Virus record (IMG/VR): IMGVR_UViG_3300037462_000170
Location: 1 to 33,261 of that record
DNA length: 33,261 bases
Strand: one strand, 5' to 3'
From: a virus
Lineage: Duplodnaviria; Caudoviricetes
The notes below the pieces were generated by a model that searched no databases, was not told the DNA's origin, and worked only from the letters and a program-made list of their open reading frames with translations. Positions 10 to 13,229 of this stretch are shown in pieces. A program made the translations under genes and the position numbers. How positions within the stretch are numbered: the stretch's first letter is position 1; every line of letters starts with the position of its first letter.

Positions 10-402
10 ATGAGCCACACAATCACACTACGCAACAAGGCGCAGGCCGACTCGATCATCCGCAAGGCAGCGGAGTGGATCGGGCGCCGCGTCGCAGACG
101 GCCGCGCTGTTGTGCTGACGCTGGAAGACGAGCGGCGCAACTTGGATCAAAACGCGCTGCTGCACGCGCTGCTGACCGACATCAGCCACCGCCACGAATG
201 GGCCGGCCGGAAGAGGGACGCTGAATGCTGGAAGCGGCTCTTTGTCGCAGCGTGGTGTCGGGCTCGCGGGGAGGCGGTCGAGATGCTCCCGGCGCTTGAT
301 GGCCACGGCGTCGACATCGTATTTCGGCGCACCAGCAAGATGAGCAAGGCAGAGGTATCTGAGCTGATCGATTACATACAGGCTTGGGATGAAGAGGCAT
401 AA
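10..402 (+). CDS. ninB: NinB/Orf-family recombination protein
   Basis: Motifs RRNLDQNALLHALLTDIS, W.GRK...E.WKRLF and RTSKMSKAEVSELIDYIQAW match lambdoid NinB. Its TAA stop lies in the GCATAAC core site. Confidence 0.9.
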   Translation: MSHTITLRNKAQADSIIRKAAEWIGRRVADGRAVVLTLEDERRNLDQNALLHALLTDISHRHEWAGRKRDAECWKRLFVAAWCRARGEAVEMLPALDGHGVDIVFRRTSKMSKAEVSELIDYIQAWDEEA

Positions 403-484
403 CGTGGAGTTCAGCGGCGTGCCCGCTGGACATTCGAGCAACCACCCTGCTGGCGGCACGTCCGCTGCAACGCAGCGGTTAGGC
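397..484 (-). repeat. attC-like site 1
   Basis: + strand: GCATAAC-GTGGA-GTTCAGCGG-CGTGCC...GGCACG-T-CCGCTGCAAC-GCAGCG-GTTAGGC; two unpaired bases on the right arm. Confidence 0.88.
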
Positions 485-507
485 GTCACTGGCGCCGGAG
501 CGAAGCA

Positions 508-714
508 ATGTGCGAGTGCATGAAAGAGATGAACGTGGTGCTTGAGAAGCACAACTGCCGGCTGGCGATGGGCCTGCAAGTGACGCCCGACATGGGCATC
601 AAGGGTCGCTACCTGATGGCGACCGAGAAGATCGACAAGACGAAGCGCATGCCCGTGCCCAGCGTGATGTGCAGTCACTGCCCGTTCTGCGGCGAGAAGC
701 TGGCGGGCGAGTGA
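508..714 (+). CDS. Small Cys-rich phage protein (CxC...CPFCG), cassette 1
   Basis: GGAG upstream of ATG; fills the space between attC1 and attC2; likely Zn-binding. Confidence 0.8.
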   Translation: MCECMKEMNVVLEKHNCRLAMGLQVTPDMGIKGRYLMATEKIDKTKRMPVPSVMCSHCPFCGEKLAGE

Positions 715-723
715 ATTCGTGAC

Positions 724-825
724 GCCTAACGGACAGGTGAGCCGACAAGGAGGCGAGACGAAATGACCGAAGCGAACCAGAACCACGATGCCGACGAAGG
801 TCGGCGCTCGACCGAACAGTTAGGC
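724..825 (-). repeat. attC-like site 2
   Basis: GCCTAAC-GGACA-GGTGAGC...GCTCGACC-GAACA-GTTAGGC; contains AAGGAGG and ATG 763. Confidence 0.85.
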
Positions 826-1047
826 CCGCTGGTGAACCGCGCATTGTTCGCGGACGAGTGCCAGAGACTCGCTGAGTGGGCGCTTATTGGCCCTGTGCAG
901 CGGGCCGCGCTTGAGAGCTTCGCCGAGCGCCTGCTGGCCGCAGAGCGCGAGCGGTGGAAAAGCCGGTGCGCGGGGAAATCTCACTATGGGTGCCAGTACC
1001 TCGCCACATGCGGCAGCGTGTGTAACAAGTGCGGCACTGCCGTTTAG
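763..1047 (+). CDS. Hypothetical protein with C-terminal Cys cluster, cassette 2
   Basis: Starts inside attC2 after AAGGAGG; C-terminal C..C.....CGSVCNKCG. Confidence 0.72.
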   Translation: MTEANQNHDADEGRRSTEQLGPLVNRALFADECQRLAEWALIGPVQRAALESFAERLLAAERERWKSRCAGKSHYGCQYLATCGSVCNKCGTAV

Positions 1048-1048
1048 G

Positions 1049-1163
1049 GCCTAACGTAGAGGTAAGCGGACCGCAACGGCGAGAAGGACCATGACCACCA
1101 CAGACCCCGCGAACACCACGAGCGGCGCCGCTGTTGCGACTCCGGTTGACCAACCTGTTAGGC
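1049..1163 (-). repeat. attC-like site 3
   Basis: GCCTAAC-GTAGA-GGTAAGCGGA...TCCGGTTGACC-AACCT-GTTAGGC; contains AAGGA and ATG 1091. Confidence 0.85.
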
Positions 1164-1450
1164 CAGCAACCGAAGTGCGCTGGTACTGCGTGAACCGAGA
1201 CGGTCTAGCCACGCTATGCCTCAACGAACAAGATGCGCACGAGATGGCGGCGGAGTGCGACATCGACTTTCCGCGTGGCGGTCCGCATCGGGCTGTGCGC
1301 CTGGTGGATGCACAACAACCGCTGACACGCCAGCAGATTGACGCCGTGATGACCGAGCACTACCCGCTCGACAGCCTGCTGCGCGAGAACGTGGACGCAT
1401 TCGAGGTGTGCGTGCGCGACATAGAGCGGCTTCATGGAATTGGGGCCTAA
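1091..1450 (+). CDS. Hypothetical protein, cassette 3 (paralogue of 6406-6750)
   Basis: Starts inside attC3, ends on the TAA of GCCTAAC; clear paralogue in cassette 12. Confidence 0.82.
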   Translation: MTTTDPANTTSGAAVATPVDQPVRPATEVRWYCVNRDGLATLCLNEQDAHEMAAECDIDFPRGGPHRAVRLVDAQQPLTRQQIDAVMTEHYPLDSLLRENVDAFEVCVRDIERLHGIGA

Positions 1451-1543
1451 CGCAGAGTTCACCGGCCCGACACGGCCGTGACGCTGCAGGCAGAAGCAAC
1501 GGAGGACCCGCCGTGGCGGGTCCGGTGGAACGCCCAGTTCGGC
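1445..1543 (-). repeat. attC-like site 4
   Basis: GCCTAAC-GCAGA-GTTCACCGG...CCGGTGGAAC-GCCCA-GTTCGGC. Confidence 0.85.
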
Positions 1544-1572
1544 TGGGGTTAGATGCAACCGAAAGGACGGAT

Positions 1573-1854
1573 GTGGACCACAACGAATGCGACCTGACGC
1601 CGTGGTTTGACGGCCGCACAAAGCCGATCCGCGTAGGCGTCTACATGCTCAAGTGCGGTGGCGCCGGGCTCAGAGACGGATACCAGCACTGGGACGGCAA
1701 AACGTGGGGGCCTTGGCATCCGAGCGCAGAACATGCCGCGCAGAGGCGGCCCGATCAACGCGCCGATCTGAAGTATCAGAACGACAACTGGCGCGGGCTC
1801 CGCAAGAAGCCGAACGTGGGAATTGAGCCGCCGCGTAGCGGTCGGCTCGAATGA
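1573..1854 (+). CDS. Hypothetical phage protein (TPWF..KP.RVGVY...WRGL), cassette 4
   Basis: Frame of track ORF 1408-1854; likely GTG start at 1573 after AAAGGA. Reads through into attC5 (KKPNVGIEPPRSGRLE*). Confidence 0.72.
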   Translation: MDHNECDLTPWFDGRTKPIRVGVYMLKCGGAGLRDGYQHWDGKTWGPWHPSAEHAAQRRPDQRADLKYQNDNWRGLRKKPNVGIEPPRSGRLE

Positions 1855-1864
1855 CGGGTTAGGC
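1809..1864 (-). repeat. attC-like site 5 (short, 56 bp)
   Basis: GCCGAAC-GTGGGA-ATTGAGCCG-CCGC-GTA-GCGG-T-CGGCTCGAAT-GACGG-GTTAGGC; on the - strand it reads like a classical 59-base element. Confidence 0.9.
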
Positions 1865-1883
1865 CCGTTGTAACCGGAGCGAG

Positions 1884-2054
1884 ATGATGGCGAGCGAACA
1901 ACCAAAGCCCGTGCAATGCGCGTGGTGCCGCAAGGTGTTCACTGCGGGCGGCGACATGGCCTGCGGTGCAAAGGTGCCCACCCACATGGCCGCAGGGCCT
2001 GACGGCGCGTGGTGCAAGACCGACGACATTGTGAAGATGCTGGAGAAGACATGA
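1884..2054 (+). CDS. Small hypothetical protein (56 aa, CxxC), cassette 5
   Basis: Not in the ORF track; translated by hand (MMASEQPKPVQCAWCRKVF...MLEKT*). GGAG RBS; ATGA overlap with the next gene. Confidence 0.65.
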   Translation: MMASEQPKPVQCAWCRKVFTAGGDMACGAKVPTHMAAGPDGAWCKTDDIVKMLEKT

Positions 2055-2266
2055 GCCCAAAGATGCAAGTGGCTATGCGGATCGTGAGCGAGCACCTGGA
2101 CGCGATACAGCGCTCGGTGTTCAAGTCCGATGCCGGCATGAAGCTGACCTTCATTGCCCGCGACCCGGCAAACCCGGAGGCCGACTTTCTGCTGAGCGAA
2201 GACGACCTATCCGAAGTGGCCGAACTGCTGATTCGCAGCGCTGCCCGCGAAGATGTACGGGCCTAA
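2051..2266 (+). CDS. Hypothetical phage protein, cassette 5
   Basis: ATG 2051 overlaps the upstream TGA; ends on the TAA of GCCTAAC. Confidence 0.75.
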   Translation: MSPKMQVAMRIVSEHLDAIQRSVFKSDAGMKLTFIARDPANPEADFLLSEDDLSEVAELLIRSAAREDVRA

Positions 2267-2356
2267 CGTTCGAGCTAAGCGGGAGACGCCCCATGACCAA
2301 GCATGAAGACACCACCCAAGCTGCCGGCGGCTCTCCGCTTGAGTGAGGGGTTGGGC
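2261..2356 (-). repeat. attC-like site 6
   Basis: GCCTAAC-GTTCGA-GCTAAGCGG...CCGCTTGAGT-GAGGG-GTTGGGC. Confidence 0.85.
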
Positions 2357-2385
2357 GGCTGGTGAGCGAAGGCACAGGAGTAGGC

Positions 2386-2508
2386 ATGCTGACATTGACG
2401 CTATGCAAGTTCACGCACTGCCGGCTGCGGCCAGCGTGGGCAAGCAACGCGGCCGGCTGGCAGTTTCACTGGCTGTGGATTTACTTTGAATGGCGGAACG
2501 AGCAATGA
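2386..2508 (+). CDS. Small Trp-rich peptide (40 aa), cassette 6
   Basis: AGGAG RBS; MLTLTLCKF...WQFHWLWIYFEWRNEQ*; ATGA overlap with the next gene. Confidence 0.55.
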   Translation: MLTLTLCKFTHCRLRPAWASNAAGWQFHWLWIYFEWRNEQ

Positions 2509-2735
2509 AGAAGGCCAAGGATTTCAACGCCGACATGGTGGACCTGCAGCTACAGGTGAGCCAAGCCTACGCGGCCGAGGTTCACAAGCTGCGGCAGGAG
2601 AACAAGGAACTGCGCGCGACCATCGCGGCTTTCCCTTCGACCGCCACCGAACTGCAAGACCGCGTGACGATGCTGGAATGCCAACTGCTGGCCCGCAGCG
2701 AGCCGCCCAACGTTGCAATTGAGCCGCGCCGTTAG
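2505..2735 (+). CDS. Coiled-coil hypothetical protein, cassette 6
   Basis: ATG 2505 coupled to the upstream TGA; heptad-like pattern; stops inside attC7. Confidence 0.7.
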   Translation: MKKAKDFNADMVDLQLQVSQAYAAEVHKLRQENKELRATIAAFPSTATELQDRVTMLECQLLARSEPPNVAIEPRR

Positions 2736-2761
2736 GCGTCGGCTCGAATTGCGTGTTGGGC
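2705..2761 (-). repeat. attC-like site 7 (short, 57 bp)
   Basis: GCCCAAC-GTTGCA-ATTGAGCCG-CGCC-GTTA-GGCG-T-CGGCTCGAAT-TGCGT-GTTGGGC. Confidence 0.9.
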
Positions 2762-2807
2762 GTCTCGTGCCGAAGCGCTGAAACGTTGGCGTGTTACAAA
2801 AAAGGTC

Positions 2808-2835
2808 TTGCGTAGTCTGGTTGTTGTGCTACAGT
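2808..2835 (+). promoter_or_regulatory. Putative sigma70 promoter inside cassette 7
   Basis: TTGCGT-16 nt-TACAGT with TG extended -10 motif and an upstream A tract, in an AT-rich gap before ATG 2868. Confidence 0.6.
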
Positions 2836-2867
2836 AACCACATCGACAACGCAACCGGAGAGACGAA

Positions 2868-3074
2868 ATGGCAACGCAACAAGTGAACCTCTACAGCCCC
2901 TGGATCAGCAACCGCAAGAACTGGACGGAGGCCGTGCGCGTTGAGCGTGTGATGCAGGCCACCGGCTGCACCGCTGACGATGCCCGCGAGTACCTGATGG
3001 CTGAGGAAGGCGACGAACACGACGCGATCCTGAGCTACCGCACCGACCGCCAAGCCTACGGGGCGGTGCGATGA
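2868..3074 (+). CDS. Small protein with UBA-like three-helix motif, cassette 7
   Basis: VERVMQATGCTADDAREYLMAEEGDEHDAI resembles UBA-like domains (EF-Ts N-terminus, NAC); GGAG RBS. Confidence 0.7.
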   Translation: MATQQVNLYSPWISNRKNWTEAVRVERVMQATGCTADDAREYLMAEEGDEHDAILSYRTDRQAYGAVR

Positions 3075-3337
3075 GCGCGGCCCTGCGGCAAGACCTAGAC
3101 GAGGCCCGCAAGGGCCTTGCCGAGTGGCGCACGCTGGCGCTTTCGTTGCAGGCACAGATGAAGCACCAAGCCGATTGCCGCGAAAGCGAACTTGTGACGC
3201 TGCTGAAGGACATCCTGCATTGCAGCGACGTGTTTGCAACCTTCCGGCCGGACCTGCACGCGCGGCTGCTGGACTTCGGGCGCCGGCTGAAGGCGCAGGA
3301 GCCCCGCGACGACTTCCCAGACGACTACGAGGTATGA
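3071..3337 (+). CDS. Hypothetical protein, cassette 7
   Basis: ATGA overlaps at both ends. Confidence 0.7.
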   Translation: MSAALRQDLDEARKGLAEWRTLALSLQAQMKHQADCRESELVTLLKDILHCSDVFATFRPDLHARLLDFGRRLKAQEPRDDFPDDYEV

Positions 3338-3534
3338 GCGGCGAACAGAACAAGGGCGGGCGACCGCCCGCGCCGCCTCAGTTGCAGCGCGTGAATGTGC
3401 CGCTTCGCCTGCCGCGCTGGATGGCGGAATGGATCGCGGAGCAGTGCGCAGAAGGCCCGCCGTACAAGACGGCGACACAGTTGATCGAAGCGGCGATGGT
3501 GAAAGCCTACAAGCTGCGCCCGCCGAAGGAGTGA
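3334..3534 (+). CDS. Probable ribbon-helix-helix DNA-binding protein, cassette 7
   Basis: GGRPP...RVNVPLRLPRWMAEWI...ATQLIEAAM pattern; start set to ATG 3334 (GAGG RBS, ATGA overlap). Confidence 0.7.
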   Translation: MSGEQNKGGRPPAPPQLQRVNVPLRLPRWMAEWIAEQCAEGPPYKTATQLIEAAMVKAYKLRPPKE

Positions 3535-3536
3535 CG

Positions 3537-3791
3537 ATGAGCCAGAACTGCCCCAAAGGCGATGAGCCGTGCATTCGCGGCTGCAAAGGATGGGAATGCC
3601 GAGATGGGTGGCCTGAAGACCGCGTGACCTGCGGCGGCGGCTTGCCAGGAGACCCAAACGGCGAACACGCCGCGCTGGCCGTCGAGGTTCTCGTGCGCAA
3701 GTACGAGGGCGCGATGCTGCGCGAGACTTTGCGAGAGGCGTTGACCGAGGCGTACATGATGGGCGCGCAGAACATCCTGGGGAGACTGTGA
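3537..3791 (+). CDS. Cys-rich hypothetical protein, cassette 7
   Basis: AAGGAG RBS before ATG 3537, in the frame of track ORF 3429-3791. Confidence 0.65.
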   Translation: MSQNCPKGDEPCIRGCKGWECRDGWPEDRVTCGGGLPGDPNGEHAALAVEVLVRKYEGAMLRETLREALTEAYMMGAQNILGRL

Positions 3792-3967
3792 TGGACTACC
3801 ACCTACTGACGAAGAAGTGCGACGGCATGTGCGACTCGTGCGAGTGCCCGCCCGCAACGCTTCCCGACAGGCCACCGACGCCCGGTTGCCGCACCCCCGA
3901 AGGGTGCCGCGAAAACGGCTGCCTTGTCTGGTGCGATGAGCACAAGCCGGAGGCGGCAAATCCATGA
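3791..3967 (+). CDS. Small Cys-rich protein (58 aa), cassette 7
   Basis: Not in the ORF track; MDYHLLTKKCDGMCDSCECPP...; TGATG and ATGA overlaps with both neighbours. Confidence 0.6.
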   Translation: MDYHLLTKKCDGMCDSCECPPATLPDRPPTPGCRTPEGCRENGCLVWCDEHKPEAANP

Positions 3968-4191
3968 CCCTGCAAGACCGCATTGACGAACTCGTGGCAC
4001 AGCACGGAAGCCTTCGCGCCGTAGCTCGCGTGACAGAGATTGACGTGGGCTACCTGTCGCGGATGCGGGCCTACGCGAACGTAAACCCGGGCCGCGACAA
4101 GCTGCGCCGGCTGGGCCTGCGCCGTGTGGTGACCTATGAACTGCTCAAGACGCCCAACGCAGAGCTAAGCGGACCGGGCCGGCGCAGATGA
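3964..4191 (+). CDS. Cro/XRE-like HTH protein, cassette 7
   Basis: HGSLRAVARVTEIDVGYLSRMR...NPG...LRRLGL; reads into attC8. Confidence 0.75.
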   Translation: MTLQDRIDELVAQHGSLRAVARVTEIDVGYLSRMRAYANVNPGRDKLRRLGLRRVVTYELLKTPNAELSGPGRRR

Positions 4192-4253
4192 ACTGTCAAG
4201 GAATGCTTGAGCGTTGCCCGCCGGCCCGGGTCCGCTTGAGCGCACTGTTGGGC
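4152..4253 (-). repeat. attC-like site 8
   Basis: GCCCAAC-GCAGA-GCTAAGCGGA-CCGGGCCGGCG...CGCCGGCCCGG-GTCCGCTTGAGC-GCACT-GTTGGGC. Confidence 0.9.
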
Positions 4254-4279
4254 GGCTGCCGCCCGGAGCGAGGAAGACT

Positions 4280-4477
4280 ATGCACACAGCACCGATGTCA
4301 GACAGCCAAGGCGAGTTCGCCGAGTTCAAGACCCAGCCCGACGTGCCTTGCCGCAAGTGCGGCGTGCACGCGGTGAGCATGCGCGAGTGGGAAAGCTCGT
4401 GCGGCGGCTGGGAGGACTACCAGTACAAGTGCCACCACTGCGGCCATACGTGGTGGGTGGAAGGAATTGACGCATGA
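4280..4477 (+). CDS. Zinc-ribbon protein, cassette 8
   Basis: CRKCG...YKCHHCGHTW; ATG 4280 after GAGGA. Confidence 0.75.
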   Translation: MHTAPMSDSQGEFAEFKTQPDVPCRKCGVHAVSMREWESSCGGWEDYQYKCHHCGHTWWVEGIDA

Positions 4478-4692
4478 AGTACTGGTGGCTCGTTGAGAAC
4501 TTCACTGCCGAAGGGCATTCCACCGGGCTCTATATGGCGTGCCAAGTGAACATGACCCTGACCGCCGACGTGCACAAGGCTCGCAAGTTCCGCCGCCAAC
4601 GCACGGCCGAGTTCCGTGCGCTGGACATGCGTGACGCGAGGCGCGGCGACTGGCGCGCCGTGGAGCACGGCTTTGAGGACAGCAAGCCATGA
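4474..4692 (+). CDS. Hypothetical phage protein, cassette 8
   Basis: ATGA overlaps at both ends. Confidence 0.72.
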   Translation: MKYWWLVENFTAEGHSTGLYMACQVNMTLTADVHKARKFRRQRTAEFRALDMRDARRGDWRAVEHGFEDSKP

Positions 4693-4991
4693 GCAGAGAA
4701 GCTTTTGGCGACCCGCCAGAACAGCAGGAAGTGCCTGAGTATTGCCCGAACTGCGGCAGCGACTTCTACATGCCTGGCTGCACGCACTGCGAAGAGGTGA
4801 AGCGGCGCTGCGCCGCCGAGTCCGAAGCGCTGGCCCTGCGCGGGGTTCTGCACCGCATGTTGGAAGCGCCGACGACGCAAATCAGCGTTGGCTGGAAGGA
4901 TGCGATCAGGCGGGCGATGTTCGCAGCCGTGCCCGACAGCAAGACGCCCAACGTGCGAATTGAGCCGGTGACCCCGGCCACGGAGGAATGA
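4689..4991 (+). CDS. Hypothetical protein with two CxxC pairs, cassette 8
   Basis: CPNCG...CTHC; reads into attC9 (KTPNVRIEP...). Confidence 0.72.
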   Translation: MSREAFGDPPEQQEVPEYCPNCGSDFYMPGCTHCEEVKRRCAAESEALALRGVLHRMLEAPTTQISVGWKDAIRRAMFAAVPDSKTPNVRIEPVTPATEE

Positions 4992-5040
4992 TGACCACAG
5001 AAACCACGCCGGGGCACTCGGCTCGAATGAGGGGTTAGGC
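4946..5040 (-). repeat. attC-like site 9
   Basis: GCCCAAC-GTGCGA-ATTGAGCCG...CGGCTCGAAT-GAGGG-GTTAGGC. Confidence 0.88.
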
Positions 5041-5059
5041 CCGTCGTAACCGGAGCGAG

Positions 5060-5299
5060 ATGATGTTTGAGAGCTTCACAATCCAACACCCGTACCGAGC
5101 TGGGACGATGGAGGTTGTTCCTGCTGCCGACTACGCAACAGCAAAGCTGGCAGCCCTGGACTGCCGAACATGCCGACACCTGAGCGCCAAGCACCAAGAG
5201 TGCCTGTCTGTGCTGCGATGCGAAGGCGGCGACATGCACCAGCGGCAAGGCAAACTGATGCTGTGGCACACGGCAGACCTTCAGGGGCGCGGCTTCTAG
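5060..5299 (+). CDS. Cys-containing hypothetical protein, cassette 9
   Basis: GGAG RBS; CRTCRH motif; fills the cassette. Confidence 0.68.
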   Translation: MMFESFTIQHPYRAGTMEVVPAADYATAKLAALDCRTCRHLSAKHQECLSVLRCEGGDMHQRQGKLMLWHTADLQGRGF

Positions 5300-5300
5300 G

Positions 5301-5395
5301 GCCGAACGCAGAGGTCAGGCGGGCCAACGGCCCAGAGGCTTGACCACACCACACACCTGCGAGGCCGTTGGCCTTGCCTGCACCGAAAGTTAGGC
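5301..5395 (-). repeat. attC-like site 10
   Basis: GCCGAAC-GCAGA-GGTCAGGC-GGGCCAACGGCC...GGCCGTTGGCC-TT-GCCTGCACC-GAAA-GTTAGGC; only a 4-nt spacer, possibly impaired. Confidence 0.8.
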
Positions 5396-5421
5396 CTGGT
5401 GGCCAAAGAAGGGAGTAGACG

Positions 5422-5664
5422 ATGCGAAGCAGCAGCCGATTGAACTTGGCCGCGGCGATGGCGATGGCCTCGATTGCCGGCCTGAGCGCCGCGCAAGAGG
5501 CCGCCGGCCCCCCGTTGCGCAGCGCCGGAAGCGGCAACAACCGACGGCCGACTCCGCCGCGCATGGATACGGAGCAGGCGCGCGAGGTGGCGGCCTGGAA
5601 TGCCGAAGTGGACCGCCGAAAGGCTGAGAAGAAGGCCGCCAAGCTGGCGAGGCGCGCGGCCTAA
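5422..5664 (+). CDS. Hypothetical protein, cassette 10
   Basis: GGGAG RBS; Ala-rich N-terminus, basic C-terminus; ends on the TAA of GCCTAAC. Confidence 0.7.
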   Translation: MRSSSRLNLAAAMAMASIAGLSAAQEAAGPPLRSAGSGNNRRPTPPRMDTEQAREVAAWNAEVDRRKAEKKAAKLARRAA

Positions 5665-5757
5665 CGCAGCGGTAACCGGACAAGGAGGCTGCAGTGAGTG
5701 AGCAAAGCGAGAAGGTGCCGCCGGCCGACGCAGGTCCGGTTGACCAACCTGTTGGGC
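5659..5757 (-). repeat. attC-like site 11
   Basis: GCCTAAC-GCAGC-GGTAACCGGAC...GTCCGGTTGACC-AACCT-GTTGGGC; contains AAGGAGG and GTG 5694. Confidence 0.87.
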
Positions 5758-5930
5758 GGCCGGTGGACGAAGCCACGGACGCCGAAGGGCCGCGAGGCAC
5801 CTACGGGTGCGCTTGCGTGAGCCGCAGCGGCCATGCATGCGCCGAGCTGCGCTACGGCTACCGCGAGATACCGGAGCCGTGCGAGTGCCTGTGCCACGAC
5901 TGGAGAGACGGCGATGACGACCTGGGCTGA
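5694..5930 (+). CDS. Cys-rich hypothetical protein, cassette 11
   Basis: GTG start inside attC11 after AAGGAGG; CAC...C...CECLCH. Confidence 0.68.
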   Translation: MSEQSEKVPPADAGPVDQPVGRPVDEATDAEGPRGTYGCACVSRSGHACAELRYGYREIPEPCECLCHDWRDGDDDLG

Positions 5931-6102
5931 CGAGTACGTGACCCTGCTGGAAGACTGCGAGAAGCGCAGCGAGCGCCTGAGCGATTGGGAACTCGGTTTC
6001 GTGGACTCGCTGCAGCGGCAACTGGCCGAAGGGCGCAGGCCCAGCGCGAAGCAGATCGAGACGCTGGACACCATCTGGGAGCGCGCCACCAAGCGCGGCT
6101 GA
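5914..6102 (+). CDS. Small hypothetical phage protein, cassette 11
   Basis: LSDWELGFVDSL...PSAKQIETLDTIW pattern; ATG 5914 after GGAG. Confidence 0.75.
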   Translation: MTTWADEYVTLLEDCEKRSERLSDWELGFVDSLQRQLAEGRRPSAKQIETLDTIWERATKRG

Positions 6103-6106
6103 CGCC

Positions 6107-6367
6107 ATGCACGTTGAACTGCAGATGGACCTAGCGCTGCTGCAGCGCGCCATGAAGGCCGAAACCGAAGCCGCGCTGCTGCGGGCTGCGCTGGACGCCG
6201 AAACGGCACGCTGGGAGGAAGCCCTGCGCCTGACATGGCAGATGGTGGACCCGCTGAAACCGGCCGGGCAACCCGGCAGCTACTGGCGCGGCCAGGACGC
6301 CGGGATAGTGGCCGCGCTGACCACACTGCGGGCGAACCTGAAGACGCCCAACGCAAAGCTAACTTGA
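6107..6367 (+). CDS. Hypothetical protein, cassette 11
   Basis: Follows the upstream stop by 4 nt; reads into attC12 (KTPNAKLT*). Confidence 0.68.
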   Translation: MHVELQMDLALLQRAMKAETEAALLRAALDAETARWEEALRLTWQMVDPLKPAGQPGSYWRGQDAGIVAALTTLRANLKTPNAKLT

Positions 6368-6463
6368 CCGCCACGGCGCGAGCGCCACAACTTGAGGAAG
6401 ACGAGATGACCGATGCAGACAACAGGCCCGCCGTGGCGGGTCAAGTTGAGCGACCTGTTAGGC
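6346..6463 (-). repeat. attC-like site 12
   Basis: GCCCAAC-GCAAA-GCTAACTTGA-CCGCCACGGCG...CGCCGTGGCGG-GTCAAGTTGAGC-GACCT-GTTAGGC. Confidence 0.9.
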
Positions 6464-6750
6464 CTGCCGCCGAAGCGCGCTGGTACTGCCTGAGCCGCGA
6501 AGGCATGGCAACGCTGTGCGCCGACGAGGAAGACGCAAAAGAGGTGGCCGCCGAAAGCTGGGTTCTGTACCCGAACAACGGGCCATATCGTGTGGCGCAA
6601 ATGGTGGACCGACAACAGCCGCTGACGCGCCAGCAAATCGACGCGGTGATGACCGAGCACTACCCGCTGAGCAGCCTGCTGCGCGAGCAAGTGGACGCCT
6701 TCGAGGCATGCGTGCGCGACATTGAGCGGCTGCATGGCATTGGGGCCTAA
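6406..6750 (+). CDS. Hypothetical protein, cassette 12 (paralogue of 1091-1450)
   Basis: ATG 6406 after GAGGA inside attC12; aligns with the cassette 3 protein. Confidence 0.82.
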   Translation: MTDADNRPAVAGQVERPVRPAAEARWYCLSREGMATLCADEEDAKEVAAESWVLYPNNGPYRVAQMVDRQQPLTRQQIDAVMTEHYPLSSLLREQVDAFEACVRDIERLHGIGA

Positions 6751-6865
6751 CGCCCGAGCTAACCTGACCGACACAGCGCGATGACAGACCAAGTAACCCA
6801 GGACGCACCGACCGACGCCAGCCACAGGCCCGCTGTGGCGGTTCAGGTTGAGCGAAGTGTTAGGC
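6745..6865 (-). repeat. attC-like site 13
   Basis: GCCTAAC-GCCCGA-GCTAACCTGA...TCAGGTTGAGC-GAAGT-GTTAGGC; contains ATG 6781. Confidence 0.87.
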
Positions 6866-7419
6866 CCCATGCGACGGCTGCGGGCTACGGCTGCATATTG
6901 GCTGACCCGCCTTGGGCGCTGACGATGGCCGGGCAGCGCAAGCGTGCGAAGGAAGGCAAGAAGCCCGAGGCGCTGCCGTACCCGACGATGACCATTGCGC
7001 AGATATGCGACATGCCCGTTGGCCAGCTTGCCACCGAAGACGCGCACCTGTGGCTGTGGACAACAAACCAGCACCTTGAGGACGGATTCAAGGTGATGCG
7101 AGCGTGGGGCTTCAAGTACCTGGCGCCTGTGCATTGGGTGAAGCCGACAGGCATGGGCAACTGGTTTGTACACCGCACGCAGACGATGCTTTTTGGCTAC
7201 CGCGAGAAGTGCAGGTTTCCGCTGGCGCGCTACCGGCCGAACGTGTTTCACAGCGGCGACCCGAAGCGGCACAGCGAGAAGCCGGAAGCGGCCTATGAAC
7301 TGGTGGAAGCGGTGAGCCCTGGGCCGCGCTTGGAGTTGTTCGCGCGACGGAAGCGCGATGGCTGGCACACCTGGGGAAATGAGGTGCCATGCGATGTATT
7401 CATGGGGCCTAACAGGTAG
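6781..7419 (+). CDS. MT-A70-family adenine methyltransferase, cassette 13
   Basis: ILADPPW catalytic motif, YPTM, HLWLWTTN, WGF.Y, HSEKP, RLELFAR, GW..WGNE. Confidence 0.92.
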   Translation: MTDQVTQDAPTDASHRPAVAVQVERSVRPHATAAGYGCILADPPWALTMAGQRKRAKEGKKPEALPYPTMTIAQICDMPVGQLATEDAHLWLWTTNQHLEDGFKVMRAWGFKYLAPVHWVKPTGMGNWFVHRTQTMLFGYREKCRFPLARYRPNVFHSGDPKRHSEKPEAAYELVEAVSPGPRLELFARRKRDGWHTWGNEVPCDVFMGPNR

Positions 7420-7425
7420 ATATGC
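7407..7425 (-). other. attI-like recombination site at the right end of the array
   Basis: GCCTAAC is not followed by an attC hairpin but by AGGTA-GATATGC. GATATGC is a 6/7 inverted match to GCATAAC at 397-403. Confidence 0.65.
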
Positions 7426-7769
7426 GCACTTTGCAACCTCTGCACAGCCGCTGGGCTCGCTACAACGCCGACCCCGCGAACCACGCGCGCCGCCGCGCAG
7501 CGAGAGACGCAGCCCGCATCGCCGGCCCTGCGCCAGCCTACCCACCAGACGCGCCGCTGCACGGAGACTGGCTCGGCGGTCGCATCAACGGCCACACCGT
7601 CATCGTGCGCCTGATGCGTGACCCAAGGCACCGCAGCGACCAATGGGCGGCCGAGGTCGACGGCGAGGTGATCGCGGACGCTGCGGGGCTGACGGAGCTG
7701 TGGAGACTGCTGCACCAGCGCTGGCCGCGGGCGCTGTCCCGGCGAGAGATTGCGGGGATGACGACATGA
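7422..7769 (+). CDS. Hypothetical protein
   Basis: ATG within the attI-like site; ATGA overlap with the next ORF. Confidence 0.62.
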   Translation: MRTLQPLHSRWARYNADPANHARRRAARDAARIAGPAPAYPPDAPLHGDWLGGRINGHTVIVRLMRDPRHRSDQWAAEVDGEVIADAAGLTELWRLLHQRWPRALSRREIAGMTT

Positions 7770-7975
7770 CAGACAACACCGGATGGCGATGGGTCCGCCT
7801 GCGCCAAACGTCAGACGGCCGGCGCGTCGCCAAGGAATGGGCCGCCGAAGCCGCCGAGCCGCCCAGCTTCTTGACGCCGACGGCGACAGTTGCGCGCGAG
7901 GTCATGCGCGGATTCAGGCCCGAGCATACGCATCGGGCGTGGTCGCATGTGTTCGGCTACCGCTACAGGGAGTGA
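7766..7975 (+). CDS. Hypothetical protein
   Basis: ATG 7766 in the frame of track ORF 7643-7975, coupled to the upstream stop. Confidence 0.55.
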   Translation: MTDNTGWRWVRLRQTSDGRRVAKEWAAEAAEPPSFLTPTATVAREVMRGFRPEHTHRAWSHVFGYRYRE

Positions 7976-7976
7976 G

Positions 7977-8159
7977 ATGATCATCCGCATCGAATCCGCA
8001 TCGACCCGCCGCTGGCAGGCCCGCGCGTACACCGTGGCGCCTCGGTACGTGTCCAAGCTGTTCAGCGATGCCAAGTGCGGCGGCATCGATGCTGCATACG
8101 CACTCGCTGCGGCAGAGGCGCCGAAGCTCAAGCGCAAGGCAAGGAGGCGGCGGGCGTGA
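7977..8159 (+). CDS. Small stand-alone AP2-like DNA-binding protein
   Basis: GGGAG RBS; WQARAY...SKLFSDAKCGG..AAYALA resembles phage AP2 domains. Confidence 0.55.
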   Translation: MIIRIESASTRRWQARAYTVAPRYVSKLFSDAKCGGIDAAYALAAAEAPKLKRKARRRRA

Positions 8160-8375
8160 CGATCTGGCGCGTCCTGTGGTTTCCGTAGTAGCAGCGTATC
8201 ATGGCGGCTCTCACACCGTCGTTGCCACACGTCGACCAGCCAACCCGCTCAGGCGTCATGAGGATTAGCCCCCCGGCTGATCGAAACCGCGGGACCGGGG
8301 ACTCTCACGCATGCGCCTCCAATCGGGAGAGCTGCCGGTGACCAACGCGGGAAGCCGCGAACGGGGCGCAGTCGT

Positions 8376-8456
8376 GAGGGCGAATGCGCAGGCTGATGCG
8401 CAGCGGAGTAGCTCCCGTCCGCTACGGCAAGCCGGAGATCAGCGCCGGCCGCTCTC
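8376..8456 (+). ncRNA. Candidate structured RNA (four-way junction with complementary loops)
   Basis: Closing stem GAGGGCG/CGCTCTC; arms TGCGCA-GGCTGA-TGCGCA, AGCGGA...TCCGCT and GCCGG-AGATCAGCG-CCGGC; loops GCTGA and TCAGC are complementary. Confidence 0.5.
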
Positions 8457-8777
8457 TTCCAACTCACCGAACCCTGACGCCAGCGACTCCCGCGCCCTCT
8501 TGGCCGCGCTGTCGATCTGCTGCGAGTCGATCAGCGCCTGGCCGGTGATGTAGGTTCGCAGCAGGGTCTCAAGCTCATCCTGCCGCGTCCTGGCCTCGTC
8601 GAGCTGCCTGACCAGCCGATCCCGCTCCCGGCGCTCGTGCCTGCGGTCGCGGTCGACGTAGCCGCGAAGCTCATCCAGCCGCGCCCATGCAACCATGAGC
8701 CGGACGCGGATGTTCCGGCGCTGCGCCCGCTTGCGGCGGGCTTGGTCCCATGCGCGAAGGCGGCCGAGGATGTTCAT
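8439..8777 (-). CDS. Basic coiled-coil hypothetical protein
   Basis: 112-aa Arg-rich helical ORF at the end of the - strand late operon. Confidence 0.55.
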   Translation of the reverse strand: MNILGRLRAWDQARRKRAQRRNIRVRLMVAWARLDELRGYVDRDRRHERRERDRLVRQLDEARTRQDELETLLRTYITGQALIDSQQIDSAAKRARESLASGFGELEESGRR

Positions 8778-8887
8778 GGGATTGGTTGTGTGCTACTATT
8801 TCCAGGTCTGGCTTCTCGGTTGGACACGGCGGGTGCTTCGGCGCTCGCTTGAAGGCCCCGTGGTGCGAGCCCGGGGCCTTCGCCTTT

Positions 8888-10021
8888 CTAGCGCGCCGTC
8901 AACTCCGTTTTCCGAGCGCTGCTGAAGCTGGTGCCGATCCAGTAGCCAGCCACCATGCCGACGACCGCAAGAACCGCGGTCACGATCTGAACCCGAAGCT
9001 CGCCGGTGTAGTTGCCGGGATGGACGAACAGCACATCCACCAGCAGCATCATCGGCATCAGGATCAGGACGAGGCTGATCAGGAATGCCGGGTTCCGCCA
9101 CAGCGGGATGCCTGACTCCATGGTGGCAGTGTTCGCCTTCCTGGCGCCCTCAACACCACCGCCGCCGGCCTCGGTCAGTTCGTACCAGATCGACTCGACG
9201 GCCTTCTCTGCCGCAGCCCTTGCCACGGGGTCGGCCCTGATCTTCTCGGCCGCGTCCTGGGCATTGACGGCACCCGTGGCGGCAGTCACGGCCTCGACGA
9301 CCACCTCTGCGGCCTTGATGTTTCGCTCTGCCACTTGAGAGCCGGACCCGAACACCCGGCCCAGCTTCGGGATGCTCTCGATCAGGCTCGGCAAGACGGC
9401 TGCGATGATGGGCGCGATTGCGGGCATGCTTTGCTCCTTCGGCCACTCAGGGCCTTCGATCCACAGAGGCACTTCGGCCGGGGCTGGCTGGTTGGCAAGC
9501 ACCGCCTTTGCTCGCTCCCAACGTGCGCGGCGGTCTGCGGCTCCGTTCGTCCCGCCATTGATGCGGCGCGTGATGCGGTCGAAGTCGCCAGCGTCGGCCA
9601 ATGCGTTTAGGTTGCGCGACCCCCACCACGCCGCGGCCGACCACGCGGCCCACTGCGGTTCTTCCAAGGCTTCGGGGCTGGCCTCAAAGTCTGGCGCTCC
9701 CTGGTGGGCAAGTAGCTGCCCCATCTGCCGATAGTTGTCCCGGCCGGTGACTTGGATCAGGCCCCGACCGCGATAGCGCGTGCCGTCGCCTTGGTTGACG
9801 TTGCCGAGGTCTTTCCGACCTTCGTAGGCCGATCCGTCGGCAATCTCGCGCAGCCACTTGAATGACCCGGACTCGTGGCCGATTTGGGCCAAGAAGGCGG
9901 CCAACCGATCTGTGGTATTGATCTCGTAGAAGCGGCAGGCTTCCGACAGCCAGCCAGCGAACAACTCCGCGCGCTCCGGCGTGCAGCCGGTGGCGTCTTG
10001 GAGTAGTTGCGGGGTGATCAT
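8888..10021 (-). CDS. GH19-family endolysin fused to a C-terminal membrane (holin-like) domain
   Basis: RLAAFLAQIGHESG, YEGRKDLGN, GDG.RYRGRGLIQVTGR.NY, ITRRINGG.NG..DR. Start reset to ATG 10021, overlapping the upstream stop. Two hydrophobic segments at the C-terminus. Confidence 0.88.
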   Translation of the reverse strand: MITPQLLQDATGCTPERAELFAGWLSEACRFYEINTTDRLAAFLAQIGHESGSFKWLREIADGSAYEGRKDLGNVNQGDGTRYRGRGLIQVTGRDNYRQMGQLLAHQGAPDFEASPEALEEPQWAAWSAAAWWGSRNLNALADAGDFDRITRRINGGTNGAADRRARWERAKAVLANQPAPAEVPLWIEGPEWPKEQSMPAIAPIIAAVLPSLIESIPKLGRVFGSGSQVAERNIKAAEVVVEAVTAATGAVNAQDAAEKIRADPVARAAAEKAVESIWYELTEAGGGGVEGARKANTATMESGIPLWRNPAFLISLVLILMPMMLLVDVLFVHPGNYTGELRVQIVTAVLAVVGMVAGYWIGTSFSSARKTELTAR

Positions 10022-10410
10022 TTGGTGATCCAGTCCACCGACGCCAGCCACCAGCCCTTGACGGTACCGATCCCCAGGCCGACAGCCACCAGCGTCGGGG
10101 CCAGCCATCTCACAAACTTCCCGCCAACGCGCGCTGTCGTCACGACATCCCGCACGGCCTCGGTGGCTGCTAGGGTGCGCTGGGTCATGTCGGTGTTATC
10201 CAGCAGCGCCCGCTGCATCTCGTCCATCCGTGCCGCATGCTCCCGGCGCTGCACATCTGCATGGCGCTGGCTCACCGTGATTTCGGCGATCTGCGACGCC
10301 AAGAACTCGTGCCCTGTCGTCACCACGCGCAGCCCGCTTTCGACGGAGCCGAGGCGGTCATGCAAGGCGGCCCAATCGGTTACGCTGACTCGCTGTTCTT
10401 CGCTGCTCAT
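10018..10410 (-). CDS. Putative holin/antiholin-type membrane protein
   Basis: Coiled-coil region plus one C-terminal hydrophobic segment; directly upstream of the endolysin. Confidence 0.6.
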   Translation of the reverse strand: MSSEEQRVSVTDWAALHDRLGSVESGLRVVTTGHEFLASQIAEITVSQRHADVQRREHAARMDEMQRALLDNTDMTQRTLAATEAVRDVVTTARVGGKFVRWLAPTLVAVGLGIGTVKGWWLASVDWITK

Positions 10411-10694
10411 CCAGCACCCTCATCGGCCGCCCTCCGGGCCGCTACTGCTACCGCCCTGAGATACCGCAGGCACTCGGCGGCCTGTTCGGTGCGCATGTCC
10501 TCCCGGGCGCCGGCGGCGGTCTGCAAGAGCTGCACGCCGATGGCCGGGGAGTAGTCGATTTCAATCAGCCGGCCCATGGCCTTCATGACCGGCGGCCGCT
10601 GGGTGAGTTCGATGCTGACGCCCTCATGGATGGCCACGCCTTTGCCGTGGGCGTCTGACCACCACAGTCGGGAACGGTGCAGCCAGTGCGACAC
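10407..10694 (-). CDS. Hypothetical protein
   Basis: Tightly packed between neighbours, with ATGA overlap. Confidence 0.65.
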   Translation of the reverse strand: MSHWLHRSRLWWSDAHGKGVAIHEGVSIELTQRPPVMKAMGRLIEIDYSPAIGVQLLQTAAGAREDMRTEQAAECLRYLRAVAVAARRAADEGAG

Positions 10695-10695
10695 G

Positions 10696-11079
10696 TCAGC
10701 CCCCGGCCTGCCTGCGCAGCTCGGCCTGGCGGTCCAGAATCGCCCGCTCGATCACGGTCAGCGGCTGGCCGTTCTGGGTCACGAGCATGGGCTGCCCCGC
10801 GTCTCCAGGCATCTGCCGCGCCACGATCTGCGGCAGATCGTCGGCGCCGGCCTTGGCGATGCGCGCCAGCTCGGCCTGCATCGCCTCGTCGACGGCTGGC
10901 GCCGGCTCGGCCGCGCGCTGCTTCGCCGCCTGGATGGCCTGCTGCAGCTGCGATGCCTTCTGCAGCGCCTCCTGATGCCGGTAGCGCCCAATTTCGGACT
11001 GCGCCGCGATCAGTTCGGCCTGCAGCCGCGTCACCTGCAGTTGCAGGGTCAGGACTTCGATGGATGGGGTGTTGCTCAT
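10696..11079 (-). CDS. Coiled-coil hypothetical protein
   Basis: MSNTPSIEVLTLQLQ...; start reset to ATG 11079, overlapping the tailspike stop. Confidence 0.65.
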   Translation of the reverse strand: MSNTPSIEVLTLQLQVTRLQAELIAAQSEIGRYRHQEALQKASQLQQAIQAAKQRAAEPAPAVDEAMQAELARIAKAGADDLPQIVARQMPGDAGQPMLVTQNGQPLTVIERAILDRQAELRRQAGG

Positions 11080-13220: not shown

Positions 13221-13229
13221 CGCGTCGCC

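Follow-up and report, generated by a model that had tools for sequence, protein, structure and literature searches.

The window, that is, the whole stretch of 33,261 nucleotides analysed here, comes from a podovirus-like phage and is a linear record estimated to be 91% complete. It carries an array of 13 attC sites with an attI-like end. The features are listed below, where frame A is the CCN-AAC (Pro-Asn) frame across the core.

10..402, plus strand: ninB, the last fixed gene before the array; TAA stop in the core of site 1; Pfam PF05772 (E=1e-37), PHROG 72
397..484, minus strand: attC site 1, the weakest; lacks an internal frame-A stop; missed by the automatic finders
724..825, minus strand: attC site 2; SD and ATG 763 start gene 763-1047; frame-A TGA at 764
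1049..1163, minus strand: attC site 3; ATG 1091 starts gene 1091-1450, a paralogue of 6406-6750; frame-A TGA at 1092
1445..1543, minus strand: attC site 4; frame-A TGA at 1479; the overlapping GTG opens a 24-codon ORF only; next called gene at 1573
1809..1864, minus strand: attC site 5, 56 nt; terminates gene 1573-1854 in frame A; ATG 1851 opens 3 codons; next gene at 1884
2261..2356, minus strand: attC site 6; frame-A TGA at 2304; short ORFs at 2293 and 2303; next called gene at 2386
2705..2761, minus strand: attC site 7, 57 nt; TAG 2733-2735 terminates the upstream gene; a 1.4-kb multi-gene cassette is next
4152..4253, minus strand: attC site 8; terminates gene 3964-4191; ATG 4188 has no SD and is not in frame with gene 4280
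4946..5040, minus strand: attC site 9; terminates gene 4689-4991; SD-led ATG 4988/4991 opens a leader of 15-16 codons to 5038; then gene 5060
5301..5395, minus strand: attC site 10; frame-A TGA at 5341; TTG 5340 opens 17 codons; next gene at 5422
5659..5757, minus strand: attC site 11; SD and GTG 5694 start gene 5694-5930 in frame C; frame-A TGA at 5699, 5 bases on
6346..6463, minus strand: attC site 12; terminates gene 6107-6367; TTG 6364 and SD-led ATG 6406 share the frame of the gene ending at 6750; second frame-A TGA at 6407
6745..6865, minus strand: attC site 13; ATG 6781 starts the methyltransferase gene; frame-A TGA at 6782
6781..7419, plus strand: MT-A70 DNA methyltransferase cassette gene; Pfam PF05063 (E=5e-26)
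7407..7425, minus strand: attI-like simple site with core, 5-nt spacer and imperfect inverted box; frame-A TAG 7417-7419
7422..7769, plus strand: gene directly after the attI-like site; starts 2 nt past the frame-A stop

How closely do these sites resemble integron recombination sites? Inverted core boxes, the conserved AAC/GTT and paired L boxes were found in 12 of the 13 sites by a rule-based finder and in site 1 by eye; some purine positions of the cores are occupied by C or G. Read on the minus strand, the extrahelical base in L'' is a C at position 4 in 11 of 12 sites and lies at position 3 in site 10. The predicted hairpins of the 13 sites fold at -15 to -38 kcal/mol, the minimum-energy structure of site 4 being misfolded. 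A cassette here begins at the AA|C crossover in its own attC and reaches as far as the core of the following site. For 12 of the 13 cassettes in the window the right core matches the left core of that following site, and for 5 of 13 its own left core; the corresponding numbers are 144 and 24 of 185 informative phage cassettes, and 92 and 9 of 116 in bacteria. R'' is complementary to the core left by insertion of the same cassette in 12 of the 13 window cassettes. The motif at 7407-7425 is common to 74 candidate array ends and resembles attI1 of the class 1 integron, its second box being imperfect. It occupies the position that attI has before intI in two related records, L003 and L052.

A search for an integrase (PF00589) in the 91% complete record gave no match, and of 42 related records only 2 have an IntI above the cut-off. 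The array thus agrees with a CALIN (at least two attC sites and no intI nearby), in a record from which about 9% of the genome is missing. The relatives L003, L052, L034, L157, L121 and, in part, L047 carry intI, and complete phage integrons with intI after attI occur among the related phages. Among GenBank phages the IntI search returned 9 records, one of which, Rctr41k, has no attC found by the finder in the 13.6 kb examined. Are the repeats then homology linkers, shuffled by phage recombination of the NinB/Red type like other regulatory modules that phages carry in repeat, and not live integrase substrates? The lack of a tyrosine recombinase in the window contig and the rarity of IntI among related records would fit, as would the position of ninB beside the array. 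Near-identical attC sites usually have unlike genes behind them (in 60 of 72 pairs both flanks differ), and mosaic joints fall within cassettes, as between window 4152 and L162: site 8 and its downstream DNA recur in L162 with another upstream neighbour. However, the extrahelical base and spacer asymmetry are conserved, the core complementarity obeys the IntI rule, attI-like ends are retained, and several relatives have intI in canonical geometry. IntI1 also recombined five of the six phage attC sites assayed by Qi et al. (2023, PMC9892861). We therefore consider homology linkers as the sole explanation highly improbable. IntI and homology routes may act together, and the frame rule described below would serve either.

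The attC anatomy was fitted on the minus strand in 12 window sites, four window sites having an additional, poorer plus-strand fit, and ninB, the MT-A70 gene and all called array genes are on the plus strand. The array genes are thus on the attC bottom strand, opposite to the arrangement of bacterial cassettes. A class 1 integron used as control has its genes on the top strand. Bottom-strand genes were found at 331 of 336 phage sites and top-strand genes at none, while bacterial sites have top-strand genes in 146 of 171 cases. The genes were called with a simple caller written for this analysis, which replaced noisy longest-ORF calls. A-skew was rejected as an orientation marker, as phage and bacterial top strands are both T-rich and do not separate. 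The inversion of the genes relative to attC is the key fact, and it was missing from the title and reasoning of the initial annotation. Since the genes are on the attC bottom strand, the hairpin sits 5' of its own gene and would be translated. The classical cassette, a top-strand gene ending at or before its own attC, is absent from the window. An Rfam search gave no match, a σ70 promoter search found none and terminators are not in excess; no cultured-phage match to the array was found, and no attC was seen in the ninB relatives L001 and L002.

The first reading of this DNA had proposed that the attC sites carry a built-in stop in the Pro-Asn frame, and all of its coordinates are correct. Six ORFs read across a core in frame A, with their stops at 1854, 2735, 4191, 4991, 6367 and 7419. 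A frame-A stop lies inside the attC in 12 of 13 sites, site 1 being the exception. The first such stop belongs to an (A/G/T)TGA in 11 sites (764, 1092, 1479, 1852, 2304, 4189, 4989, 5341, 5699, 6365 and 6782), and is TAG 2733 in site 7. The cassette genes at sites 2, 3 and 13 do start at ATG 763, 1091 and 6781, and the attI-like site does provide a frame-A TAG (stop 7419) and then ATG 7422. Could such numbers arise by chance? When the variable loops alone were shuffled, a mean of 8.0 of 13 sites had a frame-A stop (P(≥12)=0.0015, or about 0.005 allowing for frame choice), and 11 (A/G/T)TGA were reached in 0 of 20,000 shuffles (mean 4.5). In the window alone, frame B has stops in 11 of 13 sites if the core TAA is included and in 7 of 13 past the crossover, and frame C in 9 of 13. 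Most of the 11 overlapping start triplets open no real gene. The genes upstream of sites 2, 3 and 13 end no later than the core, and none of the 13 attC junctions in the window has a real ATG overlapping the real stop of the gene before it. Close stop-start spacing is found at the attI junction only (stop 7419, ATG 7422).

Is the frame rule general among phages? The initial annotation had called for a count of stops per frame in phage and chromosomal sites, and the count came out in its favour: frames A, B and C have 206, 77 and 74 of 239 in long phage sites, compared with 78, 38 and 87 of 159 in chromosomal sites, where the frame-A bias is absent. The 206 frame-A stops inside the hairpin compare with about 85 in shuffles, and the first stop falls in the loop in 161 of the 239 sites for A, 29 for B and 30 for C. 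Of the three frames, only A usually stays open along the left arm, to meet its stop in the loop. The last gene of a cassette ends before the core, has the core TAA as its stop, or reads across as Pro-Asn in frame A. Genes that cross the crossover point do so in frame A in 91 of 92 cases (69/69 in the confident subset), and a count at non-TAA cores that needs no gene calls gives 54, 17 and 10 of 80 for A, B and C. The few bacterial genes crossing their own core are in frame A in 8 of 8. The type of upstream end and the type of site are paired at random (Fisher p=0.37). Thus the phage-specific bias, the crossings and the random pairing bear out the proposal of a standardised, order-independent frame interface, and a selected, frame-locked interface across phage attC sites is well supported. 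Two other origins of the stop were considered. TGA as a by-product of ATG followed by an A-initial codon was rejected, and a stop that serves the gene of the circularised cassette itself accounts for little of the pattern (91/99 vs 117/142).

The frame might also be inherited and not maintained, if the loops go back to a handful of ordinary phage stop/start junctions or to a single ancestral site. The ATGA overlap is indeed the commonest ordinary junction in these phages (354 of 1046), the attC sites form one similarity network, and one gene is found with and without a terminal attC, having a plain ATGA junction in the window and an attC end in other runs. The attI TAG at +13 is present too in a bacterial attI candidate, L226. 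However, the stop positions vary widely while the frame is constant. Among 55 homologous pairs with a shifted register, 50 partners have a frame-A stop, compared with 22 expected from simple inheritance. The bias holds at both spacer lengths (97/113 and 109/126) and persists after thinning to below 55% identity, being weaker in the smallest thinned sets. Greedy thinning was used for independence, sets below 40% identity (9-12 sites) being too small; single-linkage clustering of the loops gave 7 clusters with 233 of 239 sites in one and was of no use for this purpose. Indels left of the stop had been predicted to fall in multiples of three, which they did not (38 of 330 shifts), and a compensation test was used instead. 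Taken together, mere inheritance of the frame seems improbable.

There is a further question, whether ribosomes are handed from one gene to the next through the hairpin. Of the 305 sites for which a downstream gene was called, 128 (about 40%) contain its start; in the other 177 the start is at or after the right arm. The internal starts are in frame B in 69 cases, C in 53 and A in 6. The start-stop offset is -1 in 50 of the 128 and between -11 and +7 in 102, while a permutation null that keeps the loop positions gives means of 6 and 52 (maxima 17 and 70); the exact -1 overlap is thus 8-fold above expectation. The base after the start is A in 61 of 67 frame-B starts compared with 136 of 252 ordinary starts. 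Removal of the 5' arm is predicted to cut the cost of opening the start by 4.5 kcal/mol, compared with 2.2 kcal/mol at ordinary starts (p=2e-5). Extra occlusion of the hairpin starts is not supported, as the predicted opening cost is 9.7 kcal/mol and that of ordinary starts 10.2 kcal/mol (p=0.88). Since the cost in intact hairpins is not above the ordinary one, coupling is not obviously required. The initial annotation had held that any cassette could follow any other with ribosomes handed on. The frame interface stands, but the hand-on is not universal: besides the 177 of 305 starts outside the loop region, 228 of 320 upstream genes end no later than the core, and of 78 read-through junctions only 29 have a start within -11 to +7 nt of the stop, 47 having it more than 7 nt after. 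An SD-led leader ORF is present in only 18 of 83 long sites with a later gene start. Ribosome hand-over at attC junctions would then be partial. Clean termination appears close to universal, and coupling probably brings a benefit under certain conditions, at a minority of the junctions.

Would insulation alone be enough? The frame-A stop would then end stop-less genes and block fusions, the proximity of starts would come from the shared unpaired region, and re-initiation would play no role. This explanation is favoured by the retention of the frame-A stop in 62 of 83 long sites without an internal start (24 expected), by the avoidance of frame A by starts, by the lack of overlap at most realised junctions, and by starts that are by prediction not unusually occluded. 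However, about 70% of long sites contain a stop in frames B and C as well, mostly at the L box, and yet these frames are unused for crossing, and both the excess of the exact -1 overlap and the preference for A after frame-B starts speak against it. Insulation as the whole account is, in our view, unlikely. The reading we prefer, with a probability of about 0.7, is a phage integron array with bottom-strand genes, whose hairpins are read as mRNA and in which selection likely keeps one crossing frame that ends in the hairpin, near the internal start if there is one. IntI from the host or a related phage would reorder the cassettes. After reshuffling, a stop-less gene would end within about 15 codons, with neither fusion to nor overrun of the next gene. 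The sites that hold the start and N-terminal leader of their own gene, about 40% of them, have it in frame B or C, almost never A. At a junction between a read-through gene and such a site, the left arm would be unwound by the ribosome, which would then terminate and re-initiate.

The effect of shuffling on protein ends can be followed in these arrays. As had been suggested, C-termini change: one and the same cassette is seen with different neighbours and different C-terminal tails. At the other end, near-identical attC sites stand in frame ahead of unrelated genes, and one methyltransferase has three different attC-encoded leaders or its native start. The MT-A70 gene of the window takes about 28 first residues from attC 13 and its stop from the attI-like site, and its homologues have other attC leaders or native starts. 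By tblastn, homologues of the 7422..7769 gene (57-71%) occur in L070, L126, L128 and L146, three of them listed right behind an array end. We tentatively suggest, as a possibility still short of even odds, that these arrays are an integron class of the phages' own, in which attC is a portable translation module, new cassettes arise by in-frame joining of a site to a headless phage gene, and shuffling keeps the coupling and swaps the termini. If this is true, attC gives a stop to the preceding gene and a ribosome-binding site, start and N-terminal leader to the following gene, and phage early operons are a place to watch cassette genesis.

In the usual picture an integron is a bacterial device, each promoterless gene has its attC behind it, and the attC hairpin hinders translation or barely affects it. 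Here is a widespread phage class with the gene reversed, the recombining strand predicted to be translated and a frame rule under apparent selection. Such a rule would allow early genes to be reshuffled without broken or fused proteins. The shared attC sites before unrelated genes, the swapped leaders and the presence or absence of attC give a handle on the open question of cassette origin. Pipelines that assume the canonical orientation would assign attC to the wrong genes and miss starts.

How do these arrays compare with known systems? The PeSL cassettes of T4-type phages and the boundary sequences of lambdoid phages are expression signals that recur between small, non-essential early genes and enable gene exchange. 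Unlike the phage attC arrays, they are not known to have integron anatomy or a site-specific recombinase. Phage genomes with attC arrays, mostly without intI and with frequent DNA methyltransferase cassettes, are described by Qi et al. (2023, PMC9892861), and the window shares all three features with these phage integrons and CALINs. A term search of the main text of that paper found no discussion of gene inversion, starts in attC or frame, and the single finder-detected attC site of TJE1, a phage of that set, is canonical. The inverted-gene, frame-locked layout was not found in the literature searched. With the classical integron, as described by Nivina et al. (2016, PMC5027507), the window sites share the R and L boxes, the extrahelical base, the asymmetric spacer and the bottom-strand AAC crossover; intI on the bottom strand beyond attI is likewise common to the classical integron and the phage relatives. 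The phage arrays differ in having bottom-strand genes, with attC before the gene. Transcription would accordingly run toward attI and intI, and cassettes entering at attI would be promoter-distal. The closest parallel in translation is given by ORF-11, ORF-17 and ORF-18 of attI1 and the short ORFs of attC, by which a site aids translation of the next cassette through termination-reinitiation, the ORF-11 stop being supplied by whichever cassette is inserted (Hanau-Bercot 2002 and Jacquier 2009, as described in the review PMC8876359 and in PMC11511950). These top-strand cases are termed anecdotal in PMC11511950, which also describes mostly little effect of attC deletion on downstream expression in class 1 cassettes. 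The ORF-11 type is top-strand and site-specific, whereas the phage sites follow a family-wide frame rule over attC and attI, and the phage attC holds the real start and N-terminus of its own gene.

The record is linear, 33,261 bases long and 91% complete, and its main features are as follows.

10 to about 8,200, plus strand: ninB, about 25 small genes mostly without a family, and an MT-A70 methyltransferase gene
397-6865: array of 13 attC-like hairpins, plus a half site at 7407
From 8.4 kb onward, minus strand: terminase, portal, capsid, head-tail connector, ejection, tail spike and endolysin genes

By this minus-strand gene set the phage is podovirus-like. No tyrosine recombinase was found in the record, which is 91% complete. 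Within the array, 1049-1450 and 6346-6750 are paralogous cassettes, 75% identical in the body and different in the left halves of their attC loops. The 1.4-kb cassette 7 is headed by a non-coding, AT-richer stretch (2780-2860), partly common to loci L103 and L036; it may be a promoter, and a sigma-70 scan found none there.

On which strand of the attC sites do the cassette genes lie? Extrahelical base and spacer lengths put the canonical top strand of the 12 automatically found window sites on minus, and the genes are on plus. In a control class 1 integron the same finder gave a top-strand position for the annotated genes. Viral contigs were then searched with attC patterns plus two protein queries (loci L001-L170), and 4 of the 64 parts of a bacterial genome collection with one attC pattern (L171-L330). 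Without near-duplicates the set comprised 220 bacterial and 347 phage sites, the window contributing 5 of the latter; gene positions came from a purpose-written gene caller. Bottom-strand genes accompany 331 of the 336 evaluable phage sites and top-strand genes none, while 171 bacterial sites have top-strand genes in 146 and bottom-strand genes in 17. The patterns favour high-GC cores, so these counts apply to the high-GC-core class only. Reversed genes with their own promoters exist in some bacterial cassettes. Locus L061 carries attC in both orientations, in separate clusters (1312-1868 and 3904-8269). Inverted phage-type sites also occur in some bacterial genome bins (L205, L236, L251, L176, L229, L317); L205, a Roseateles bin, has sites similar to window sites 5, 9 and 13, which possibly mark a prophage and may hint at the host group.

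Of 42 phage records, 2 have an integrase above the family cut-off, and tblastn placed IntI in six phage contigs, one of them partial; that of L052 shares 53% identity with IntI1. Wherever intI is present its strand is the attC bottom strand (18/18). The array genes lie on this strand as well in 5 of 6 phage loci and on the opposite one in 10 of 12 bacterial loci. By this comparison the phage integron geometry is canonical, with only the genes reversed. Two complete phage integrons, L003 (13925-14733) and L052 (9150-10312), have the order array, attI, intI, with intI on the array-gene strand. Their arrays (6827-13924 and 2883-9153) hold several DNA methyltransferase-like genes, judged by N-terminal sequence.

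Crossover by IntI at the left AA|C predicts a match between the right core of each site and the left core of its successor. In the window this match holds for 12/13 cassettes, against 5/13 for the site's own left core; the numbers are 144 against 24 among 185 informative phage cassettes and 92 against 9 among 116 bacterial ones. Of 113 near-identical site pairs, 11 have only downstream DNA in common and 2 only upstream DNA, which are small numbers, and both flanks differ in 97. Both boundary tests go in the predicted direction, so attC travels with the downstream gene yet often gains new gene partners. Reordering is also seen between sequencing runs: contigs of other runs begin at window cores 1809, 4152, 4946, 5301, 5659 and 7407, and one carries cassette 5 between different neighbours. 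Gene 4474-4692 has a plain ATGA junction in the window, and contigs of runs X3, X6 and X7 diverge at 4683-4686 into a frame-A attC core (frame A is defined below), which points to a site gained or lost at a native junction. A single cassette of L162 joins the front of window cassette 8 (4152-4480) to the back of cassette 11 (5815-6345); therefore recombination occurs inside cassettes too.

The initial annotation saw in the attC stop/start overlaps an order-independent coupling interface, and every stop and start coordinate it listed in the window is correct. In the Pro-Asn (CCN-AAC) frame, here frame A, 12 of 13 window sites contain a stop, 11 of them as (A/G/T)TGA. Loop shuffling gave a mean of 8.0 of 13 sites (P = 0.0015 for at least 12), and 11 (A/G/T)TGA were reached in 0 of 20,000 shuffles. 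Within the window alone the other frames also stop often (frame B, with the core TAA, in 11 or 7, and frame C, the third, in 9 of 13). This contrast is modest, therefore the larger sample decides. There, a frame-A bias was found in phage sites and none in bacterial ones. Loop stops in 239 long phage sites number 206, 77 and 74 for A, B and C, with about 85 expected; in 159 long bacterial sites they number 78/38/87 on the bottom strand and 40/41/32 on the top strand. The first stop that a frame meets falls in the loop at 161 of these 239 phage sites for A, at 29 for B and at 30 for C, frames B and C mostly stopping at the L box or running beyond the site. Upstream genes (320 called) end at the core TAA in 137 cases and before the core in 91, and cross it in A in 91 and in C in 1; confident crossers use frame A in 69/69. 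The frame-A stop is kept across the three classes of ending (81/95, 56/65 and 51/56). The phage sites are mutually related, and the bias persists with one site per locus (77/31/31 of 91) and after thinning below 55% identity. The best evidence for selection comes from 55 register-shifted homologous pairs, in which 50 partners carry a frame-A stop, where simple loop inheritance would give 22. Bacterial genes crossing their own core also use frame A (8/8), which counts against phage specificity of the entry frame. Judged from these comparisons, the frame-locked interface is real and general within the phage class examined, and probably selected.

The array end shows a similar feature. Of 74 candidate ends, a set that includes some missed attC or chance matches, 33 carry the frame-A stop at +13, in a motif resembling attI1 of the class 1 integron. 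One bacterial attI candidate also shows TAG at +13; the attI stop may therefore be a side effect of the L box. The attI of L003 and L052 has a frame-A TAA at +34 in both, with two direct repeats in L003; L165 has a similar attI without adjoining intI. Gene 7422-7769 belongs to a family of unknown function that lies directly behind attI in several phages without intI.

Where do the downstream genes start? Among 305 sites whose downstream gene call was usable, 128 have the start within the hairpin. For 114 of the 128 no SD-led alternative occurs in the 30 codons past the site, and only 13 lack any in-frame ATG or GTG at all. Start and frame-A stop overlap at 50 of the 128 (permutation mean 6), and at 102 the start is placed between -11 and +7 relative to the stop (mean 52). 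Hairpin starts use frame B in 69, C in 53 and A in 6. Frame-C starts meet a frame-A stop at most 4 codons later in 34/40 (2.9 expected). An A follows the start in 61/67 frame-B cases, against 136/252 ordinary starts. For near-identical sites before different genes, the start is open in both for 31/46 pairs. The MT-A70 methyltransferase body has three unrelated attC in front, each with an in-frame leader (window 6745-6865; L003 9935-10034; L004/L006, where attC lies just upstream of the match), while homologues outside cassettes, without attC, have native starts. Hairpin-start genes of the phage sites exit in two frames: 85 read the right core as GTT-NGG, 43 are shifted on by one base, and none uses the TAG frame. 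PMC5027507 reports purine-rich attC bottom strands, which may ease the evolution of SD and start signals there.

Then are ribosomes handed on at every junction? Of the 87 realised read-through junctions, 16 have overlapping stop and start and 13 have them close together; the start comes more than 7 nt after the stop in 47 and well ahead of it in 2, and the remaining 9 lack a downstream call. Pairing between read-through genes and overlap sites is random (p=0.37), as order-independence predicts, so the overlap comes into use in only some of the cases. At the window's five read-through attC junctions the gaps before the next real start measure 29, 132, 88, 68 and 38 nt, with a leader relay on offer at site 9 and a weak in-frame TTG at site 12; a gap as short as 2 nt occurs only at the attI junction, ahead of a conserved gene. 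Folding prediction gave no extra occlusion of hairpin starts (9.7 against 10.2 kcal/mol at ordinary starts), but the predicted gain from removal of the 5' arm is larger for them (4.5 against 2.2 kcal/mol). The standardised reading-frame interface between cassettes is well supported by the site and crossing counts, but a universal hand-over of ribosomes is not. The proposal that shuffling alters C-termini holds: gene 6107 ends PNAKLT in the window and has longer, different tails in L144, L073 and L162, and tails also differ between identical cassettes of L104 and L119.

The sequences themselves show the inversion, the cassette boundary, the frame rule, where starts are placed, the reordering and the change of tails. 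As a mechanism, IntI supplied in trans would reorder the cassettes, the frame rule would ensure short tails and prevent fusions, and ribosomes crossing in frame A would open up the left arm and re-initiate at any adjoining start. Nothing on gene orientation was found in the passages of PMC8618304 examined, and no paper on inverted, frame-locked phage cassettes was found in a search with most subscription journals outside its coverage. The presence of attC arrays in phages (PMC9892861), of translation signals within attI1 and of attC-borne short ORFs (PMC8876359, PMC11511950) is already known; the inverted, frame-locked phage array would be a new variant of integron cassettes.
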